DNA from: Gemmatimonadaceae bacterium
GTDB lineage: Bacteria > Gemmatimonadota > Gemmatimonadetes > Gemmatimonadales > Gemmatimonadaceae
Assembly: GCA_025358925.1 (NCBI GenBank)
Contig: JANYHT010000017.1
Coordinates: 180,432 to 244,431 of the forward strand
Length of the DNA stretch: 64,000 nucleotides
Direction: 5' to 3'
The notes below the pieces were generated by a model. That model had not been told where the DNA came from. It did not search any database and saw only the letters and a list, made by a program, of their open reading frames with translations. Position 1 is the stretch's first letter; every line of letters begins with the position of its first letter. Shown here in pieces: positions 1 through 9,112 of the stretch. The position numbers were made by a program, and so were the translations under genes.

Positions 1-1614
1 CGCTATGCGAATTCGTGTGGCGACGTCTGCCGCGCTGCGGGCTGGCGATTGTGCTGCAGCGCCAACGAGTTGTTCGGCGAGTTGCGCTTTGTGCGTCAGT
101 CGATCCGAAAGTTTGAGAATGTGTGCGCTGCCCGTGGGTGGTCCGAGTTGGTACACGTGCACGACCTCGTGCAGCGACCCAATGCGCGCACAGCGTCCGA
201 CGCGTTGTTGACGCAGAGCATCGGTCCACGGGAGATCGCAGTGCAATACGATGCCTGCGTCTTGCAGATTGACGCCTTCGGCGAGGAGATCGGTGGTGAT
301 GAGGAGTGTGATGGCCTGATGCGGAGGGGGCGGGGGGCGACCTTGGGCGACAGGTGCGAAGTTGGCGAGTGCGTGCTGTCGAGAGATGGGTCCACTGGCG
401 ATGCGCGCTTGCGTGCCCGTGAGTGACCCAACGCCAGCGATGTCGGCAAGTGCGCGATGGAGTGCGTGAACGGTTTGTGCGAACTGAGAGAACGCGACGA
501 TTGGCACGTTCGGGTGCTGCGCTCGTATGTCGCGAATGGCCTGGGCGCGAATGACATCGCCGCGCGCGGTACGGCGATGGTGTTCGTCGAGCGCACGCAG
601 TGCAGCGAGGTGTTTCTCGAGGATTTCCAGCAGCGCGCCACTCTCTGTTTCGTGGCTCGCGAGTAACTCCGGAAACGCCAACTGCACTTCGTGGTCGCCG
701 ACCAGCCAACTGCGCAGTTCTGCGTGTGTTGGGTGTCGACCGGCGAGTAGTGCTTGTCGTAATGCTTCGCCGCGCGCCACTCGTTTTCGTACAGCGTGCG
801 TGAGCGCGGCGTCGCTTGAGCACCAGGTACGCAACAGTCCGAGTCTGATCAGCGCGCCGCTCACGGCACCGTCGTGCGCGGGCAGCGGGGCCGGAAGCGC
901 AAGAATAGCACTCAATGTGGCATGATCATGTGGGACATCATGCGGGGCGTGCGTACACACGCGCGGTCGTGATGCGTGAGGCGACGATTGTGTCCGTCGC
1001 ACGATGAGTTGTGCGAGTCGGTGTGGCGAGAGTAGATCTTCGCGTCCGCCGGCGAATAGTGCGAGCAGATGACGCAGCTCGCGCGCGTCGTTGTGCAACG
1101 GTGTAGCGCTCAACAGCAGGACATCGTGATCAGCGACAAACTGGGCGACTGCGGCGTAGCGTTTGGTTGCGCAGGTGCGGAGGTGATGTGCTTCGTCGAC
1201 AATCACGAAGTCATCCCCGTACAATGCGCGTGTGCTGATGGGTGGTAGTGCCGAAGAGAACGCGTGTAACGAGTGTAGTTGCACGTGTGTGCAGGCGGCA
1301 CGCGCAATGGCGTGTCGCCACATGGGCAGCAGCGCAGCAGGCGCAATCACATGTGCGGTGCGACGTTCGGCCGCGAGGGCGAGCGCGACGTAGGTTTTGC
1401 CGAGTCCGACGTCGTCGGCGAGGAGTGCGCCGTGGAATGTTTTAATGATGGAGCGTAAGCGTACGACGGCGTCTGCCTGGTGTGGGAGCAGTGTGACGTC
1501 GCCGACGATATGTGGCGCTGTTGGTGGGACAATGGCGTGTGCGATGTGTGCCTGAACGATGCTGGCTGGCGTGTTGGTGTAGTCGTGCGATGCACGCGTG
1601 TGGGAATGCGTCAT
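1..1614 (-). CDS. SNF2-family (SF2) helicase, 3' end off the window edge
   Basis: Hand translation gives an uninterrupted frame from ATG at 1614 (ATGA overlap with the MTase stop) to position 1. Motifs: GALLADDVGLGKTY (I), VIVDEAHH (II), LLLSATP (III), VAFSQF (IV), TTDLLAEGVNLQ (V), QRVGRCARIG (VI). Absent from the ORF track because no stop lies inside the window. Confidence 0.92.
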   Translation of the reverse strand, partial: MTHSHTRASHDYTNTPASIVQAHIAHAIVPPTAPHIVGDVTLLPHQADAVVRLRSIIKTFHGALLADDVGLGKTYVALALAAERRTAHVIAPAALLPMWRHAIARAACTHVQLHSLHAFSSALPPISTRALYGDDFVIVDEAHHLRTCATKRYAAVAQFVADHDVLLLSATPLHNDARELRHLLALFAGGREDLLSPHRLAQLIVRRTQSSPHASRPRVCTHAPHDVPHDHATLSAILALPAPLPAHDGAVSGALIRLGLLRTWCSSDAALTHAVRKRVARGEALRQALLAGRHPTHAELRSWLVGDHEVQLAFPELLASHETESGALLEILEKHLAALRALDEHHRRTARGDVIRAQAIRDIRAQHPNVPIVAFSQFAQTVHALHRALADIAGVGSLTGTQARIASGPISRQHALANFAPVAQGRPPPPPHQAITLLITTDLLAEGVNLQDAGIVLHCDLPWTDALRQQRVGRCARIGSLHEVVHVYQLGPPTGSAHILKLSDRLTHKAQLAEQLVGAAAQSPARSAADVATRIRIA

Positions 1615-4600
1615 CGGATATTCCAGTCGAGGAGCGGTTGCATTGACGCGACGGAAACGCCGTATGCGTCGGCGGTGGCGCTGATGTGGTCGTCGGTGGA
1701 GAGCGTGTGGCCGCTTGCGGTATACCGACTGATGTCGGCGAGTGCAATTCGCGCGGTGGTCCAATTCGGTGGGAGCGGCAGTGCGGCAACGGTCCAGCCC
1801 AAGAATCTTCGGAAGCCGCCGCGTGCGGGTTCGGCGATTGCGTTGAGCCAAGCGGCGACCAACGGCGATTCGAGTAGCGTGTGCAATGCGAGTGCGTCGT
1901 CGAGTGCGGGGGTGCGCATGACGTAGCAGCTGTTGAGCGGCACCGTGGGGTCGCCAGCGGCGAGCACGCGCGTGCGCAATTGTTTGCCGATGTCCGCCCA
2001 AACGAGTCGGGGTGCTTCGGCGTGTGCTGCGTCTGTACGAAAGAGCGACCACCATGGTGTGGATGTACGTGCGTCGCGTCGTGCGTCGAGGCGTGAACGC
2101 CAGTGCGCAAGCCAGCGTGCCGCGTGTGGTGGTAGCGCACGCAGCGGAGCGCCGTTGCTGTCGTGTGTCCAAATAATTCTGAGATCGCCGGCGTTTTTGT
2201 GCGGCGTGTTTTGTGCGTCGAGCGAGTGAATAGCTTCGCCGCGGAGTGCGGGTCGCAGCATGTGTCGTTCGATGAGTGCTGCGCGTGCGTCGGCGGTGAT
2301 GGTGGCGAGTTCGTCATCGTGTTCGGTGGCGTGCACGAGAAACGCGGCATTACACCCACATTTGGTGCCGAGTTGGGGGCGACCCAGGGGGGAGTCGCCG
2401 AGTGGTGGCGCGGTGCGTCGGAGTTTTTCGAAGGCTGTGCGGACGTGTGGTGGGAGGAGGATCCACGGTGCGGCGGGGTCGTTGTCGAGGGTGAGATGGT
2501 GTGCGGGGAGCGCGAATGTGTGTGTCGTTGTGTGTCGCGCGATGGCGACGTGGATGTGTGGAATGGGTGTGGGCGTCGCCGCGCCTGTTCGAAGTGTTCG
2601 TAGTGTTCGTTGTGCGACGATGAGTGACGGGTAAGTGGCCGCGTTGAAGAGTGCGGGTGCGTCGGACCAATCGCGGATGGTGTGGATGCGTGTCTGTTCG
2701 ACGAGGAGCTTTCGAATGCCGCCGCCGGCGAGTGCGCGCCAGAGTTTGGCGGGGACGAGCAGTGCGAGTGTGCCGTTCGGTGCGAGCAGTTGTGTGCTGC
2801 GTTCGACGAATGCGACGGCGAGGTCGGCTTGTGCGGCGAATCCTGCACTGGCGCCAGCGCGTTTTGCGCCGGCGGACCATGCGGCGAGTCGCATGGACGT
2901 GAAGGTGCGTTTGAGGAGTTGTCGTTCGCTGAGTGGAAGGGCGTGCGGGCGCACCCAGGGTGGGTTGCCGATGATGAGATGGAAGCCGGAGAGTGCGGCG
3001 ACGTCGGCGAAGTGGGCGGCGAATCGAAACGGGAGGGCGGCGCCGAGTTGGAGGTGGTGGCGTTGTCGGGTGAGTTGGTGGGTGCGTGTGCGGAGGTCGG
3101 TGAGTTGTGTGGTGTCGTTGCGTGTGCGGATGCGTCGATCGCCGAAGAGGTCGCGGGTGCGCAGTGATTCGATGAGGGCGGCGCGTTCGTGTGAGACCGC
3201 GTGGAGTTGTCGTGTGGTGTCGGCGATGGCGCGGTTGCGTTCTTCTTTGTGGAGGGCGCTGTCGAGTGTGGTTTTGCGGCGGCCGGTGGCGCGGGTGTAG
3301 CGGTCGCGCAGTTTGGTGAGTGTGCGTGCGCTGGGTGGAGCGAATGTGAAGTCGCCGCCGGCGAGTGAATCGCCGATGCGGATGTGGTGATCGAGATTGG
3401 GGAGTGGTGTGATGTGTGCAGCGCGTGTTTCTGGGCATTCGATGACGACGGAGAGCCAGAGTCGCAGTTCGCAGAGCCAGACGGCGATTGGGTTGCGGTC
3501 GACGCCGAAGATGGAGCGTGTGAGGGTGTCGCGTCTGATGACGTCGATGGCGCGTGGATCACCGCTGCGGGCGAGGAGGTTGGCGATGCATTCGAGCATG
3601 TGGACGAGGAATGCGCCGGATCCGCAGGCGGGGTCGAGGATGCGAAGGTTGGTGAGGGTGTTGCGTGTGTCGGGTGTGAGGTGGAGTGGTGTGTTGGGTT
3701 GTTCGAGTGCGTGTGGTGGGAGGTCGACGAGTGCTGAATGCAGTGCGTCTTTGACGACTTGGTCGACGAGCATTGGTGGTGTGTAGAACGAGCCGGTGCG
3801 ATGGCGTTCGGCGGCGTTCATGAGGCATTCGAAGGCGCGGCCCAGCATTTCTGGGTCGACGGCGGCTTCGGACCATGTGGTGGAGTCTTCGTGTGCGGTG
3901 AAGCGGTAGCGATCGAGGACATCGCCGATGAGAGCCGTGAGTGCGTCGTCGGTGAAGCGGAGGGTGCGGAGTTTTTGTTCGAGTGGTGTTGGTGCGAAGA
4001 GTCCGCCGTTGAGGAATGGGATGTCGCCGAAGGTGCGGGCGGCTGGTGCGCGTTGGCGGAGTGGGGTGTTGAGGGTGCCGAAGAAGAGTGGTTTGAGGAA
4101 GCGTTGGTGGAGGTGTCCGCCGGCTTCGAGTTGGTGAGCGGTTTGTTTGAGGAGGAAGTCGCGGTCGCCATTCAACCAACCTTTTGCCTGGAGGAAGGCG
4201 AGGAACAGGCAGCGTGATGCGCAGAGGAGGGCGATTTCGTGGCGTTCTTGTTTTGTTGCGGTGCCGGTGGCGGTGTTGGCGAGTGTGGTGACGGCGCGTT
4301 CGAGTGCGCGATAGAAGCGTGTGGAGAGGGCGTCTCTGCGGAGTATGTCGGTGAAGCGTGCGTGGCGAAGGTGATCGTTTGGTTCGGTGATGGTGGCGAG
4401 TGCGCGGAGTGTTTCGGCGTCGGAGTTGACGACGTGGTGTCGGTCGATGCGGAGGGCGGCGATGCGTGGGCCGTGTGGGGCGGGTGTGACGGTGGCGATG
4501 GTGAGGGTGTGGGTGTGATGATCGAGGGTGAGGGTGCACCAGTGTCGTGTTGGGGCGTGGTGTGCGAGGGTGGTGCAGAGTCGGCGGGTGAGTTCGCGTG

Positions 4601-4841
4601 CGTCGATGGTGGTGCAGCTGTTGGCGTGTGGTGTGAGTGTGGCGCAGAGGAGACGCATGGCGCCGGGACCGCGCGTGATGGTGGCGTTGGCGACGAGTGT
4701 GGCGATGCCGATGGTGCGGCTGGCGTGTGGTGTGACGGGGATCGGCGTGCTGAGGAAGCCGAGTGTGTGCGCGATGGGTTGGAGCGCGCGGAGGGAGTCG
4801 GCTTGGGTGAGCAGGTTGGCGGCGGCGCGGAGAGTGAGCAC
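1611..4841 (-). CDS. Large N6-adenine DNA methyltransferase (Eco57I/type IIG-like, TaqI-like C-terminal region)
   Basis: 1076 aa. DPEMLGRAFE and TGSFYTP (motif X region), ILDPACGSGAFL (motif I, SAM binding), IIGNPPWVR (motif IV). No clear PD-(D/E)xK nuclease motif seen in the N-terminus. Confidence 0.9.
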   Translation of the reverse strand: MLTLRAAANLLTQADSLRALQPIAHTLGFLSTPIPVTPHASRTIGIATLVANATITRGPGAMRLLCATLTPHANSCTTIDARELTRRLCTTLAHHAPTRHWCTLTLDHHTHTLTIATVTPAPHGPRIAALRIDRHHVVNSDAETLRALATITEPNDHLRHARFTDILRRDALSTRFYRALERAVTTLANTATGTATKQERHEIALLCASRCLFLAFLQAKGWLNGDRDFLLKQTAHQLEAGGHLHQRFLKPLFFGTLNTPLRQRAPAARTFGDIPFLNGGLFAPTPLEQKLRTLRFTDDALTALIGDVLDRYRFTAHEDSTTWSEAAVDPEMLGRAFECLMNAAERHRTGSFYTPPMLVDQVVKDALHSALVDLPPHALEQPNTPLHLTPDTRNTLTNLRILDPACGSGAFLVHMLECIANLLARSGDPRAIDVIRRDTLTRSIFGVDRNPIAVWLCELRLWLSVVIECPETRAAHITPLPNLDHHIRIGDSLAGGDFTFAPPSARTLTKLRDRYTRATGRRKTTLDSALHKEERNRAIADTTRQLHAVSHERAALIESLRTRDLFGDRRIRTRNDTTQLTDLRTRTHQLTRQRHHLQLGAALPFRFAAHFADVAALSGFHLIIGNPPWVRPHALPLSERQLLKRTFTSMRLAAWSAGAKRAGASAGFAAQADLAVAFVERSTQLLAPNGTLALLVPAKLWRALAGGGIRKLLVEQTRIHTIRDWSDAPALFNAATYPSLIVAQRTLRTLRTGAATPTPIPHIHVAIARHTTTHTFALPAHHLTLDNDPAAPWILLPPHVRTAFEKLRRTAPPLGDSPLGRPQLGTKCGCNAAFLVHATEHDDELATITADARAALIERHMLRPALRGEAIHSLDAQNTPHKNAGDLRIIWTHDSNGAPLRALPPHAARWLAHWRSRLDARRDARTSTPWWSLFRTDAAHAEAPRLVWADIGKQLRTRVLAAGDPTVPLNSCYVMRTPALDDALALHTLLESPLVAAWLNAIAEPARGGFRRFLGWTVAALPLPPNWTTARIALADISRYTASGHTLSTDDHISATADAYGVSVASMQPLLDWNIR

Positions 4842-4920
4842 GCGTGATGATGTGGTGTGTGCGGGCGTGGTCCGTCACCGAAGTGTTTGGGGTGGTGCCT
4901 TTTTACTGCAGGGACTAGGA

Positions 4921-4941
4921 AATAGGGAATAGGGAATAGGG
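4921..4941. repeat. Heptamer tandem repeat (AATAGGG)x3 with degenerate flanks
   Basis: aataggg aataggg aataggg read directly, about 80 bp upstream of the MTase start. Confidence 0.85.
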
Positions 4942-5314
4942 ATTAGCATTGTGTTGCGGTGTGGTGCGCTGGTCGGCAATTGGCCATCATTGGTCATCAT
5001 TACTCGGATGCGTGCGTCTCATTTCGGTTTCCGGTGCGCGCGCAAACGTTTGTCGAGCTCGGTGGAGGATGGAACTACGTTGCATCCGCTAGTTCCGCCG
5101 TTCGCTACAGCGCAGGCTCCAACATTCGTTCGCAACCGTGTGCGTCCTCCGGCTGCTCAGGGCCCGGCTACTCCAGTCTCCCGGCCATGCAGAACCGGTG
5201 GCAATGCCAAGCCAGTGCCTGTGCATGGGCTGGAAACCGCCTGCTCTGAGATTTTTAATAACGACATGACGGATCGGAACCTGTCAATGAAAATGAGACG
5301 AATGGGTTGAAAGT

Positions 5315-6556
5315 TTAGCGAGTAGCTCCGATGTACGCGGTCTGATCTTCGGCTTTGTTGATCCAGACTTCTGTGGGCAGTTGCGGGACGCGCGGTGGCC
5401 CGTTCACGAAGCGTTCGGGGTGCTGCTGATACGCGAGATCCATCGTCCGCTGTCGTTGGGCAAGGATGGTGGGCGCCTGTCCGTCATGCACGGTAGCGGG
5501 CGTGAGCCAGGCAATCCCTTCGTGTTTGTGCTCGTGGTTGTAGTGTTGAAAGACGGGACCACACCACGCGTTGGCGTGCGTGTAGCCGTCGAAGCGGTCG
5601 GGATACGTGGGAGCGTACTTGGTGGTTTTGAAGAGCGATTCCGAATACGGATTGTCGTTGCTGACGCGCGGGCGCGACAGCGAGCGCACGATCCCGAGGG
5701 TCTGATACAAATCGTGCAAATCTTTGGCGACTTGAATGCTGCCGCGATCCGAGTGCGTGGTGAGTTGATCACGGACGATGCCTTGGCGCGCGCACGCCGT
5801 GCGAATGAGGCGTTGCGCGAGCGTCGCCGATTCGTGGCGCGCCAGCATCCACGCGACGACATAGCGACTGAAGAGATCGAGTACGACATACAGTTTGTAG
5901 CGCTCGCCTTTGACCGGACCTTTGAGGTCGGTCACATCCCACGTCCACACTTGATTCGGTTGCGTGGCGACCAGACGCGGCACGGCGTACGGTGGGTGCG
6001 TGCGCTGTCGGCGCCGCGCGCGGACTTCGTGCGCGCTGGCCAGCCATCGGTAGAGCGTCCGCACACTGCACACGTACGTCCCTTCATCGAGCAGCGTCGC
6101 GTGCACCTGCGCGGGCGCACGATCGACAAAGCGGGGATCGCGCAAGTACGCCAGCACCTGCTCTTGTGCGGCCGGTGATAACGCGCGTGGTGACGGCGTG
6201 CGCACGACCATCGCGCCGTCGCGCTCGCGCGCTCGCGCTGGTGGTTTGCTCCATCGATACGCACTGGCCCGCGGCATGCCGAGCGCCGCACTCACGCGCG
6301 CCACGCCGAGCGTCTCGCCGTGCTGCTGCAAGGTTTCCGTCACGTGGGTTTTCCACTCGGCTCGCGACGTGGTCGCTCCAGCAGCACCGAGAGTTTTTTT
6401 TGGATGGAGATCAGTAACTCGGCGCGCGCGAGGTGGTCGCGCAGTTGCGCGTTCTCGCGTTGCACGCGTGCTAACTCGCTGGTATCGGCCTTCGGCTTGG
6501 GGCCACGTCGTTGCGCCAACGCGTGGCGCGCCCCCGCGTGATACTGCTTGCGCCAC
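5315..6556 (-). CDS. IS3-family transposase OrfB (rve/DDE), probably expressed as an OrfAB fusion
   Basis: PNQVWTWDVT, VVLDLFSRYVVAW, HSDRGS, SNDNPYSESLFKTTKY. The listed start is upstream of the frameshift site and is probably not used. Confidence 0.92.
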   Translation of the reverse strand: MAQAVSRGGAPRVGATTWPQAEGRYQRVSTRATRERATARPPRARRVTDLHPKKTLGAAGATTSRAEWKTHVTETLQQHGETLGVARVSAALGMPRASAYRWSKPPARARERDGAMVVRTPSPRALSPAAQEQVLAYLRDPRFVDRAPAQVHATLLDEGTYVCSVRTLYRWLASAHEVRARRRQRTHPPYAVPRLVATQPNQVWTWDVTDLKGPVKGERYKLYVVLDLFSRYVVAWMLARHESATLAQRLIRTACARQGIVRDQLTTHSDRGSIQVAKDLHDLYQTLGIVRSLSRPRVSNDNPYSESLFKTTKYAPTYPDRFDGYTHANAWCGPVFQHYNHEHKHEGIAWLTPATVHDGQAPTILAQRQRTMDLAYQQHPERFVNGPPRVPQLPTEVWINKAEDQTAYIGATR

Positions 6557-6738: not shown

Positions 6739-6811
6739 GCGGGTCGACCTCCTGCGCCCCCTGAGTGCCTCACTAATTATGCGAGGAGAATCGTCTCACA
6801 CCATATTGGCA

Positions 6812-9112
6812 GGGGGGGGCCAAGCCGACGGTCGAACGGAAAAACGTTTGTGGTGCGAGTTCAACGACATAGCGCAAGACCAAATCGGCACCACGTGTTT
6901 TCGTGTCGATTGCATTCGTAAAGTAGCGCGGTCGAATATCACCAATCACGTCGAAGTTCTGCGCCGGAAATGCGCGTACGGTTGCACCAACAAAATTCTC
7001 CGAGAGGACGATGCGATCTTTAATCGCAATGTCGAAGCAGTCAAACGTGGCCGAAAACCCAGGCATCGGCGCCCACGTCGCATCCGCACTGAAATTACGA
7101 GATTTTTCGGCCTGCAGAGGCTTGGCACCGAGGGCTCTGGCGATGGCGCTGTTGACGGGATAGGTCGCGACTTCGTTCGGTGTGGGCACGCCATTGACCG
7201 TCAGCACGTTGCTGGCGGTTGATGAGTATACGGACTGCGCAAGCGACGGTGCGCTAAATCCGGTGCTGCCCGCGGTGCGGAGCGAGAAACCGACGAGCAA
7301 TTGATAGCGCGCTGCCGCCTTCCCGATGGTTGCCGAACCGAAGTCACTGAAATGTTCAGCGCGACCTGCGAGGTCGAGCGAAAACGCATGCGTGAGGTTG
7401 GCTTCGATATCCACATAGCCCGCAGCCGACGTGCGCGACGTGTTCGTTTCATCTGTTGGCTTGAATCCATAAAACAATTGCGAACCAGGAGTGGCCGGTC
7501 TCCCGATACTTGGTCCGTCAAGTATGGCTACGCCACCATTCGTATATGACTCAACTTGTCCGCGCGTGATTTGATAGTCGTCGAGACGTGCTTCCGCACC
7601 GAATGCCACATTGATTGGCGTAGAAAGCCCCACCGAAACGGGACGTGCGATGTCGAGGTTGGTGGTGAGTTGCGATGAGTTGAGTTTGCCAGCGTAAAAG
7701 TCGCGCAAGCTATTCACGCCGTATGTAGGATTGTTCGTGTTACCGATATCAAAGCGAAAATTGTTGTTGCCATACGCAGCACTCAGATCGTAACTCCAGC
7801 CAACGGTTTTTCCCTTTACGCCGATGGCGGCACTGATGTCGTTGACCGTGCCGTCAATGTTGGGCAGAAAACCAGTTGGATACCGTGCGCGCACTACAAC
7901 GGGTTCACCGGGTCGGCGATTGAACCCCCACGAACGACCGACGCGATGCGTTGCTCCACCAAAGGCATAGAATTCGACGCCGCGTGCAGTGGTGGTGCCA
8001 ATGTTGAAGAATCCACCGGCGTCGCGCAGCTTCGCGTCGCCATACCATGACGCATTCCGTGTGGCGTTGAGCACGTCCGCCGTGATGCGTTGTCCGCCAA
8101 CGACCACATTCAATCCGGCGGTCATGCTGTCATCCTACGCTTTCGAGAAGTACTGCACGCGCGTATCCGTCTCTGATCGATTGGTCCGCGCACGATCGCG
8201 ATATTCGCCGCACAGCGTGATGTAGCCGCGGTCGCCGAGTGCATGACTCCAGCTCCCGCCGAGCTCTTTGACTTGTCCGTCGCCACGCGACGTCTCTCCG
8301 AGCGTGCTGGAAACGGTGAGTGGCGCATTTTGCTTGAGAATGATGTTGACTACGTCTGCGATGGCGTCGGATCCATACTGTGCCGCTGCACCGTCGCGTA
8401 GCACTTCGATACGATCAATCGCGGCCGACGGAATCGCATTCAAATCGACACCAGTGGAGCCGCGTCCCACGGAATTATTGACCGCGACAACGGCGCCCGC
8501 ATGTCGACGTTTGCCGTTGACTAGGACAAGTGCTTGATCGGGACCAAGACCGCGCAGAGTGAATGGCCGTTGCATGTCGACTCCGCCCGCAATGGATGAC
8601 CGCGGAAAATTGAGCGATGGTACAAGCGATTGGAGAATCTGCGTGATCTCCGTGCGACCCGTGAGTTTCATCTCTTCGCTGCTGACGACATCGATAGGCA
8701 CGGGTGCTTCGGTGACCGTGCGCTCGGTCGTGCGACGCGTGCCCGTGACGGACATGGCGGCCAATGACAGTGGCGCTTTCGTGAGCGTGAAGTCCGCCGT
8801 CGCATTTTGTCCGTCGACAACGGTGACGGTTGCGGTTGTCGTCGTGAACCCGATCAACCGCACGGTGAGCGTGGTCGACCCCGCAGGGGTAAGCAGGCGC
8901 TACGTGCCGTCGGCGCGTGTTTGCGTTCCGCGTTGCGTTCCGCGTTGCGTACCCGCGACGAAGACGGTCACTCCTTGAATTGGGCGTGCGGTACCCGCTT
9001 CCACCACGCGGCCACTGATGCCGCTTGCCGATTGCGCCGCGCTTGGTGAAGCGATAGCGATGCTCGCTACGAGTGTTGCGGAGAGAAGCGCGAGCATGGG
9101 TGTACAACGCAT
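6812..9112 (-). pseudogene. TonB-dependent receptor (CarboxypepD_reg + plug + partial barrel), inactivated
   Basis: ORFs 8900-9304, 8135-8863 and 6773-8125 share one frame, broken by in-frame TAGs at 8900-8902 and 8135-8137. Plug motif VDLNAIPSAAIDRIEVLRDGAAAQYGSDAI. C-terminal barrel strands are cut at the IS end. Confidence 0.88.

Follow-up and report, generated by a model that had tools for sequence, protein, structure and literature searches.

A methyltransferase–SNF2 gene pair conserved across Gemmatimonadales and its possible descent from a mobile restriction-like module

Methylation-based defence systems are usually mobile, patchily distributed and armed with a nuclease. Here, we describe a pair of coupled genes that departs from this pattern, in that an order of bacteria has retained it whole, at one location and under purifying selection. 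The pair encodes a large DNA methyltransferase (MTase) and an SNF2-family ATPase, and lies at the left end of a 64,000-nucleotide stretch of the genome of a Gemmatimonadaceae bacterium (GenBank assembly GCA_025358925.1, contig JANYHT010000017.1, positions 180,432 to 244,431 of the forward strand), hereafter the window. The source genome is a draft assembly of 4.0 Mb in 72 contigs, which are written below as C and a number; the window is C50:180432-244431. A further 20 kb to the left of the window were fetched and their genes annotated. Our literature search found no description of a core methyltransferase–SNF2 pair and none of a Gemmatimonas methylome (SMRT or nanopore).

The gene pair

Both genes are read on the minus strand, the MTase gene first, and the MTase falls into four regions (positions are those of the window).

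1 to 1614, minus strand: gene for an SNF2-family ATPase, first 538 of 765 codons; the remaining 684 bp lie to the left of the window and end at C50:179748
1611 to 1614, minus strand: ATGA overlap of the MTase stop and the helicase start (translational coupling)
1611 to 4841, minus strand: gene for an Eco57I/MmeI-like gamma-class N6-adenine DNA methyltransferase, 1076 aa, with a GTG start supported by the family alignment
4362 to 4841, minus strand: MTase N-terminal alpha/beta domain, aa 1-160 (AlphaFold2 pLDDT mostly >85)
3852 to 4361, minus strand: MTase helical spacer, aa 161-330, MmeI_hel/DUF7814-like (profile match to MmeI, 5hr4, query 209-463; predicted all-helical)
2592 to 3851, minus strand: MTase catalytic domain, aa 331-750 (DPACGSG at aa 403-409, NPPW at aa 626-629)
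1614 to 2591, minus strand: MTase C-terminal target-recognition region (TRD), aa 751-1076, TaqI/BseCI-like (M.BseCI, 7qw5, query 621-1063)

An initial annotation of this DNA, made from the letters and a list of open reading frames (ORFs), had reported a 1076-aa NPPW-type MTase coupled through ATGA to an SNF2 helicase that the list lacked. Both points stand: the MTase is ORF 1611-4841 and overlaps the next gene at 1611-1614, the helicase motifs are present, and the helicase is absent from the closed-end ORF list only because its gene runs off the left edge of the window. The complete SNF2 gene spans C50:179748-182045 and encodes 765 aa.

The MTase matches the Pfam families Eco57I (1.6e-19) and N6_Mtase (3.2e-13); DUF7814 and MmeI_hel match weakly, over aa 206-298. 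It carries motif I (DPACGSG) and motif IV (NPPW), neither of which varies in the family, with NPPW found in 50/50 MTase loci, and the catalytic domain carries a coiled-coil insert at approximately aa 500-600. A profile search of the PDB linked the catalytic/TRD half to M.BseCI and CamA, and the spacer plus methyltransferase part to MmeI. The chain runs from helical spacer through gamma-class methyltransferase (motif I before NPPW) to C-terminal TRD, which is the MmeI-like order. Conservation of the TRD, in which 75/326 columns are invariant in the family, is about equal to that of the rest of the MTase. Compared with its homologues, the protein is rich in Thr and His and poor in Gly, Val and Glu.

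The SNF2 motor has Pfam matches to SNF2-rel_dom and Helicase_C and to no further domain over its full length. It retains the Walker A sequence GLGKT, DEAH, SAT and QRVGRCAR (motif VI); motifs I, II (DExH), III and VI are invariant in the 41 homologues on which helicase motifs were judged, and Walker A, DExH and motif VI were seen at every locus where the fetched DNA spans them. Family alignment supports both start codons, given that L2/T3 of the MTase and M1 of the motor are near-invariant. Measured against the nearest relative (92% amino acid identity), the ratio of nonsynonymous to synonymous substitution rates (dN/dS) is 0.14 for the MTase and 0.17 for the motor, and both genes are hence under purifying selection.

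Distribution and inheritance

We searched 201 genomes across Gemmatimonadota, of which 39 belong to the same family, 99 to other Gemmatimonadales families and 63 to the rest of the phylum. The MTase was found in 126/138 of the sampled Gemmatimonadales genomes (approximately 91%), with 37/39 in the family of the source genome and 89/99 in the remaining families, and in 3/63 outside the order. Almost without exception, the gene is intact and present in one copy. A helicase homologue follows directly 3′ on the same strand in 48/50 loci, and the overlap of the two genes recurs at 4-8 bp in three other loci (L006, L007 and L008); the ATGA coupling and this adjacency show that MTase and helicase are not chance neighbours. 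The gene order MTase, SNF2, HAD phosphatase, ECF sigma factor, anti-sigma factor and two DUF4097 genes is shared with Gemmatimonas aurantiaca T-27 (AP009153.1) and two other genomes, and in a maximum-likelihood tree of the MTase the genera come out as clades. A separate scan of species-representative genomes with conserved motor peptides kept 80 loci, all with Gemmatimonadota titles except one labelled "Kuenenia" and one labelled only "bacterium".

Such a profile is that of a functional core locus passed on vertically, and not that of a defence island. Being chromosomally fixed in approximately nine of ten sampled Gemmatimonadales genomes, the pair has probably ceased to be a phage-defence island of the usual patchy kind. 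The defence framing of the initial annotation therefore does not fit the presence in ~91% of the order, the synteny or a tree that follows genera.

Relatives

The nearest annotated relatives of the MTase, found in a plasmid collection, share 25-30% identity with it over aa 130-700. Their hosts (Haloferax, Allomeiothermus, Thermus, Deinococcus, Microcystis, Nostoc and Lactiplantibacillus) span archaea, Deinococcota, cyanobacteria and Bacillota. Seven records were opened for gene context, and 7/7 have a co-oriented gene annotated as "helicase-related" or "SNF2-related", either adjacent or 1-3 small inserted genes away. The helicases of three records were scanned for domains: an N-terminal PLDc_2 (HKD) domain precedes the SNF2 core in 3/3, and 2/3 score best on the PADLOC model 'HKD+Snf2' (E ~1e-60 to 1e-65), the third scoring best on DrmD models. 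This two-gene module of MTase and PLD(HKD)-SNF2 corresponds to the PADLOC part names 'REase_MTase_IIG' and 'C3a139 HKD+Snf2' and to the NCBI labels 'DNA methyltransferase' and 'helicase-related protein'; the module itself is unnamed.

Profile alignment with hhalign matched the Gemmatimonadaceae MTase family to the Microcystis plasmid MTase with probability 100 (E 5.9e-44, query 14-749, template 14-788). The match takes in the N-domain (~165 aa), which aligns with that of the Microcystis enzyme, whose partner is a PLD-SNF2 protein. The motor in turn matched this PLD-SNF2 protein with probability 99.8 (E 2e-27, query 34-519, template 232-810). Because the match begins at template residue 232, the PLD part has no counterpart in the Gemmatimonadales motor. 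The closest relatives are hence the widespread MTase and PLD-SNF2 pairs, and not DISARM genes, to which the initial annotation had pointed among others.

Models of known defence systems match the pair only in part. With PADLOC, the MTase scores 3.8e-38 on REase_MTase_IIG and 5.9e-32 on DrmMI, the latter alignment being limited to aa 340-495, and its best-scoring model (PDLC03601) is also strong on the plasmid MTases; the best models of the motor are DpdE, DrmD (2.3e-19) and BrxH, again as partial matches. The curated NCBIfam models for BREX, DISARM and MADS all fall far below their cut-offs, with 71 bits against a cut-off of 610 for DISARM_DrmD and 16-44 bits against cut-offs of 400-900 for the PglX models.

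Search for a nuclease

The MTase N-terminus had been described as free of a nuclease motif, and this agrees with the family: no conserved D...(D/E)xK was found in aa 1-200 across 48 aligned homologues, in which the conserved N-domain residues are R82, W101 and S140-D141-A142. AlphaFold2 models were made of the N-terminal 330 residues of the MTase (pLDDT 86), which form an alpha/beta domain (~aa 1-160) followed by helices, and of the C-terminal 246 residues of the helicase (aa 520-765; pLDDT 83.5), a region with few conserved residues. In Foldseek searches of these models against the PDB, nothing below E 0.08 was returned for the MTase N-domain, which has no significant neighbour there, and no structural neighbour (E at least 1.1) for the helicase C-domain, in which no nuclease motif was found either. 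A profile scan of the motor gave no match to PLDc_2. Walker A lies at approximately residue 70 of the motor, and in loci with a clean upstream stop it follows the open-frame start by only ~60-120 residues, which leaves no space for a PLD domain.

Neighbouring genes and genome-wide partner search

On the 3′ side of the helicase, a gene for a PpaX/Gph-like HAD phosphatase follows at a distance of 10 bp (L004 6642-7307, left of the window). The genes beyond it code for an ECF sigma factor, a zf-HC2 anti-sigma factor, two DUF4097 proteins, a radical-SAM protein and a RecA-like protein. The initial annotation had allowed that further genes of the system lie left of the window; they do not, as the 20 kb there hold, besides the rest of the helicase, only housekeeping genes, among them the HAD gene, the ECF sigma and anti-sigma genes and the DUF4097 genes. 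On the 5′ side of the MTase are a 37-bp dispersed repeat, an insertion sequence (IS) with an rve transposase and a TonB-dependent receptor gene.

The HAD gene lies on the same strand after the motor in 14/24 loci with available flank, distant families included, and in G. aurantiaca it overlaps the motor stop codon by 4 bp. The phosphatase may belong to the conserved unit as its third member. A HAD gene 3′ of the motor is also present in L006, L059 and several loci of families f2 and f3. In Escherichia coli, gph sits in the dam operon.

No drmA-, DrmB- or PLD-type (DrmC) gene stands beside the pair. A whole-genome search for DUF1998 (DrmB), which detected the domain in control genomes, found none, and the genome likewise has no DUF499 (PF04465, MtsA-type) gene and no BREX-type PglZ or BrxC. 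Its sole PglZ is a PorX-like response-regulator–PglZ fusion at C32:16033-17838 (L060 9033-10838), which stands among unrelated genes and does not belong to a BREX system. No further nuclease, loader ATPase or DISARM/BREX partner was found near the pair or at other places in the genome. No DUF3780-type MtsB was found beside the pair, and a genome-wide DUF3780 search was not made. Partner searches and model scores thus agree with the earlier view of a two-gene unit distinct from DISARM class 1, BREX and type IIG; the findings named there as refuting it (drmA/B/C or BREX genes, or a PD-(D/E)xK domain) are absent, the genes both nearby and genome-wide. The pair is also, as had been proposed, a variant system, specifically a variant of the restriction-like methyltransferase-plus-SNF2 architecture.

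Rearrangement at the 5′ end of the methyltransferase gene

The DNA around and beyond the start of the MTase gene carries three further features.

4491 to 4860, minus strand: duplicated 370-bp segment holding MTase codons 1-117 and 19 bp upstream, with a 91%-identical copy at C20:2232-2601
4910 to 4946, no strand assigned: 37-bp dispersed repeat, also on C71, C31, C35 and C12
5275 to 6818, minus strand: IS element with an rve-family transposase (ORF 5315-6556), absent from a related strain in the glacier-metagenome run X5

On one side, the C20 copy is flanked by the genome's only ancestral upstream flank (class-IV aminotransferase and glycosyltransferase genes), with (ATTAGGG)5 in between, and on the other by an ArdC anti-restriction gene, which is typical of conjugative elements. 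The intact MTase gene on C50 is preceded by ~94 bp of native-like upstream sequence, then the 37-bp repeat and the IS. At 19/28 variable sites, the intact MTase gene of the X5 strain equals the C20 copy. Read most simply, the MTase 5′ end was the target of an inserted element or rearrangement that brought a replacement 5′ end with it. At the 37-bp repeat, word depth rises ~20-fold and metagenome contigs break.

Arrays of 3-8 copies of the ATTAGGG/CCCTAAT heptamer occur at eight sites in the genome (C20:2602-2636, C3, C16, C18, C38, C62 twice and C71), and the ATTAGGG repeat is also a loose end in the X5 strain. The TonB-dependent receptor beside the IS is split into Plug and barrel ORFs (6773-8125 and 8135-8863, minus strand) with a gap of 9 bp, which could reflect a frameshift, a pseudogene or a sequencing error.

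Strand asymmetry of the operon

The operon also stands out by its base composition.

1 to 4950, no strand assigned: zone of extreme strand asymmetry, with a G/T-rich plus strand, a C/A-rich coding strand and GC skew up to +0.5

With a skew of +0.44 on the plus strand against a genome standard deviation of 0.063, the operon is the most extreme GC-skew outlier of the genome. Third codon positions in the first 1.8 kb of the MTase gene are 64-73% C, 18-26% A, 4-6% G and 4% T. The asymmetry begins ~100 bp 5′ of the start codon and fades over 5.5 kb. In the Gemmatimonas clade, the skew forms a continuum across 68 species-level loci, with a median sense-strand value of -0.15 in the MTase, -0.07 in the motor and -0.02 in the downstream 3.3 kb. 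The asymmetry is also present in L004, L007, L008, L059 and L069-L148. It is not a universal property of the operon or the module, as values in family f2 and in most other genera are close to zero and the plasmid relatives do not show it. A genome of another genus (G184) has an independent skew of more than 11 kb, strongest at the motor gene's 3′ end (-0.63), which covers genes on both strands; this looks like a cause at the level of DNA rather than of mRNA.

Simple hypermutation is not supported, given that synonymous divergence from the nearest relative is lower in the MTase (0.29) than in the flanking genes (0.43-0.62) and that the net differences include G-to-C transversions; the polarised substitution counts are small. 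The higher 5′-end divergence from the X5 strain does not read as a mutation gradient, since in the last 565 bp it is largely a mosaic, 19 of the 28 variable sites there being those shared with the C20 copy. G-quadruplexes were rejected as a cause on the lack of G3 motifs on the sense strand, and the replication strand on the finding that the contig is essentially without replication skew. The C/G ratio of the sense strand exceeds 1 in 97% of its 78-nt windows, a composition like that of Rho-utilisation regions. As candidate causes, the template strand may be left single-stranded by antisense transcription, by R-loops or by forks that stall head-on; selection may favour an unstructured mRNA poor in G and U; or the encoded proteins may act in cis. 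For mutation or selection, the asymmetry of the operon poses a separate puzzle at a single locus. Second in skew is C7:4000-7000, where the genes are ordinary ones, for an MBL-fold hydrolase and a Crp/Fnr regulator, and have unusually G/T-rich coding strands (+0.35 and +0.24).

Discussion

On balance, we favour the reading that the pair descends from the mobile, restriction-like MTase and PLD-SNF2 module, has no nuclease and is now fixed in the chromosome. It is best read as a "disarmed" methylation-plus-motor module, and not as DISARM, BREX or type IIG. That the PLD domain was lost here, rather than gained in the mobile versions, is suggested by its distribution, given that the version with PLD occurs in many phyla and in archaea and the version without it in one order. 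Such a complex might work as follows. The MTase would read a short asymmetric site through its C-terminal TRD and methylate one adenine, like MmeI, PglX and MtsC. Its SNF2 partner would hydrolyse ATP to translocate on, or remodel, double-stranded DNA, and would probably dock on the N-terminal domain of the MTase, which is probably an adaptor. Lacking a PLD domain, the complex would be unable to cut DNA, and would therefore persist as a motor-assisted methylation module rather than as classical restriction. For the host, it could serve to set epigenetic marks with the help of the motor, or to scan or exclude unmodified DNA without cutting it.

Several observations weigh against this reading. 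By PADLOC scores, the motor is no nearer to HKD-SNF2 than to DpdE, DrmD or BrxH, and descent from a PLD-SNF2 protein is therefore argued from the partnership with the MTase and the hhalign match and not from a tree. BREX achieves a methyltransferase-centred exclusion of phage without a recognisable nuclease. The two confidently folded domains (MTase aa 1-160 and helicase aa 520-765) could, as modelled, hide a divergent nuclease; the top Foldseek matches of the MTase N-domain, weak as they are, are PD-(D/E)xK-type nucleases (probability at most 0.5), and related, BREX-related helicases are described as carrying a degenerate restriction endonuclease (REase) fold beyond the SNF2 core (bioRxiv 10.1101/2025.10.09.681413). 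Lastly, the HAD–SNF2–MTase unit of the X5 strain (compared over L004 6203-8000 and window 1-4944) is 95-98.6% identical to the one described here and the adjoining genes (L004 1559-5920) only ~81-91%. The operon has hence recently moved between lineages by homologous recombination, with the left boundary of the exchanged segment inside or beside the ECF sigma gene, and this points to a behaviour commoner for defence than for housekeeping genes.

The same exchange speaks for a still active anti-phage or anti-plasmid restriction system, in which the MTase marks self and the SNF2 motor destroys unmodified DNA together with a cryptic nuclease, located in the MTase N-domain, in the helicase C-domain or, in trans, in a host enzyme. 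We regard this as unlikely, though worth keeping in mind. The architecture and the homologues are restriction-like, two folded domains have no assigned function, and the weak fold matches of one of them are nuclease folds; but neither domain has a conserved acidic/lysine catalytic constellation or a significant fold match, the domain with which the relatives cut (PLD) is missing from the motor, and presence in ~91% of the order, vertical inheritance and a conserved TRD are unlike known restriction systems. A two-protein, non-degradative exclusion of the BREX type would do without any nuclease, and none was found. Here, the MTase would sense unmethylated incoming sites, and the SNF2 motor would block replication or strip replication proteins. 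The MTase is indeed PglX-like, as PglX, BREX-2 and BREX-6 models match it, though far below their cut-offs, and BREX type 3 couples a methyltransferase with an SNF2-type helicase (bioRxiv 10.1101/2025.10.09.681413). Against it stand the lack of BrxC/DUF499 and of a BREX PglZ in the genome, BREX-family NCBIfam scores that are 10-20 times under the cut-offs, and the core-gene distribution, and we find this explanation quite improbable.

Further from defence, and at the speculative end of what we consider, the pair would be a domesticated epigenetic machine with a housekeeping role in Gemmatimonadales, a bacterial counterpart of eukaryotic, DDM1/LSH-type SNF2-assisted methylation. The strand asymmetry, unique to the operon, clade-wide and graded from 5′ to 3′, would be the footprint of this machine, or of a DNA transaction linked to its expression, that acts mainly in cis at its own locus, for instance by keeping the template strand single-stranded for long periods. 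The partial PADLOC matches to DrmMI (5.9e-32), DrmD (2.3e-19) and REase_MTase_IIG (3.8e-38) are what a fragment of DISARM class 1 (drmMI and drmD), or an ordinary type IIG enzyme beside an unrelated helicase, might give. We consider either extremely improbable and, for practical purposes, refuted: the genome has no DUF1998 and the pair no DrmA/DrmB/DrmC-type gene beside it, the DISARM_DrmD score is 71 bits against 610, no PD-(D/E)xK motif was found, and the helicase is ATGA-coupled and adjacent in 48/50 loci.

The pair is a test case for what the methyltransferase-plus-motor core of MANTIS-, DISARM- and BREX-like systems does alone, be it ATP-assisted methylation, scanning or non-cutting exclusion, and for how defence genes become domesticated host functions. 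The question is open to experiment, as G. aurantiaca T-27 is cultivable and has the same operon.

Comparison with known systems

Among single-chain enzymes, the order of helical spacer, gamma-methyltransferase and TRD is that of MmeI. MmeI-type enzymes (type IIL/IIG) carry an N-terminal PD-ExK nuclease, and type ISP enzymes (LlaGI and LlaBIII) an Mrr nuclease; the logic of the latter is an ATP motor joined to a single-strand adenine methyltransferase that reads an asymmetric site. The pair resembles type ISP in combining an ATP motor with an adenine methyltransferase, for which an asymmetric site is likewise predicted, and differs from both groups in having neither a PD-ExK nor an Mrr nuclease and in having its motor as a separate polypeptide of the SNF2 family.

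Methyltransferase-plus-motor logic is also shared by the DUF499-centred BREX-related systems (bioRxiv 10.1101/2025.10.09.681413) and by DISARM class 1 and ARMADA II (PMC13463889). As in the latter two, the gene for an SNF2-type ATPase adjoins that for a large N6-adenine methyltransferase, and partial hidden Markov model matches are found, but the pair has no DrmA/DrmB (DUF1998) and no DrmC/ArmC effector, its gene order is reversed and its scores are far below the cut-offs. Hma, a type-1 BREX-related system, consists of an SNF2 protein with a C-terminal PD-(D/E)xK nuclease (HmaA), a methyltransferase (HmaB) and an ATPase (HmaC) (PMC11232893). It shares the SNF2 motor and the methyltransferase with the pair, which in contrast has no third ATPase and no nuclease detected in the helicase C-terminus; the match to HmaA covers only motifs V-VI.

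The MTase and PLD-SNF2 module is related to MtsC/MtsD of MANTIS (formerly Gao_RL; type-2 BREX-related), in which MtsA, MtsB, MtsC and MtsD act with MtsD as the PLD-SF2 effector (bioRxiv 10.64898/2026.09.23.753747). Like MANTIS, the Gemmatimonadales pair combines an adenine methyltransferase with an SF2 motor partner, the MANTIS enzyme hemimethylating asymmetric sites. Unlike MANTIS, the genome described here has no DUF499 AAA+ loader (MtsA), and where MtsD has a PLD nuclease the Gemmatimonadales motor has none.

Closest is the MTase and PLD-SNF2 module of the plasmid relatives, with which the pair has in common a homologous MTase including its N-domain, an SNF2 core and co-oriented, adjacent or near-adjacent genes. 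Two differences lie in the motor, which in Gemmatimonadales is without the N-terminal PLD nuclease of ~230-300 aa, and in the C-terminal domains, which are not alignable. The third lies in the mode of existence: whereas that module is borne on plasmids and islands and patchy in distribution, the Gemmatimonadales pair is chromosomal, vertically inherited, present in ~91% of one order and often followed by a HAD gene.

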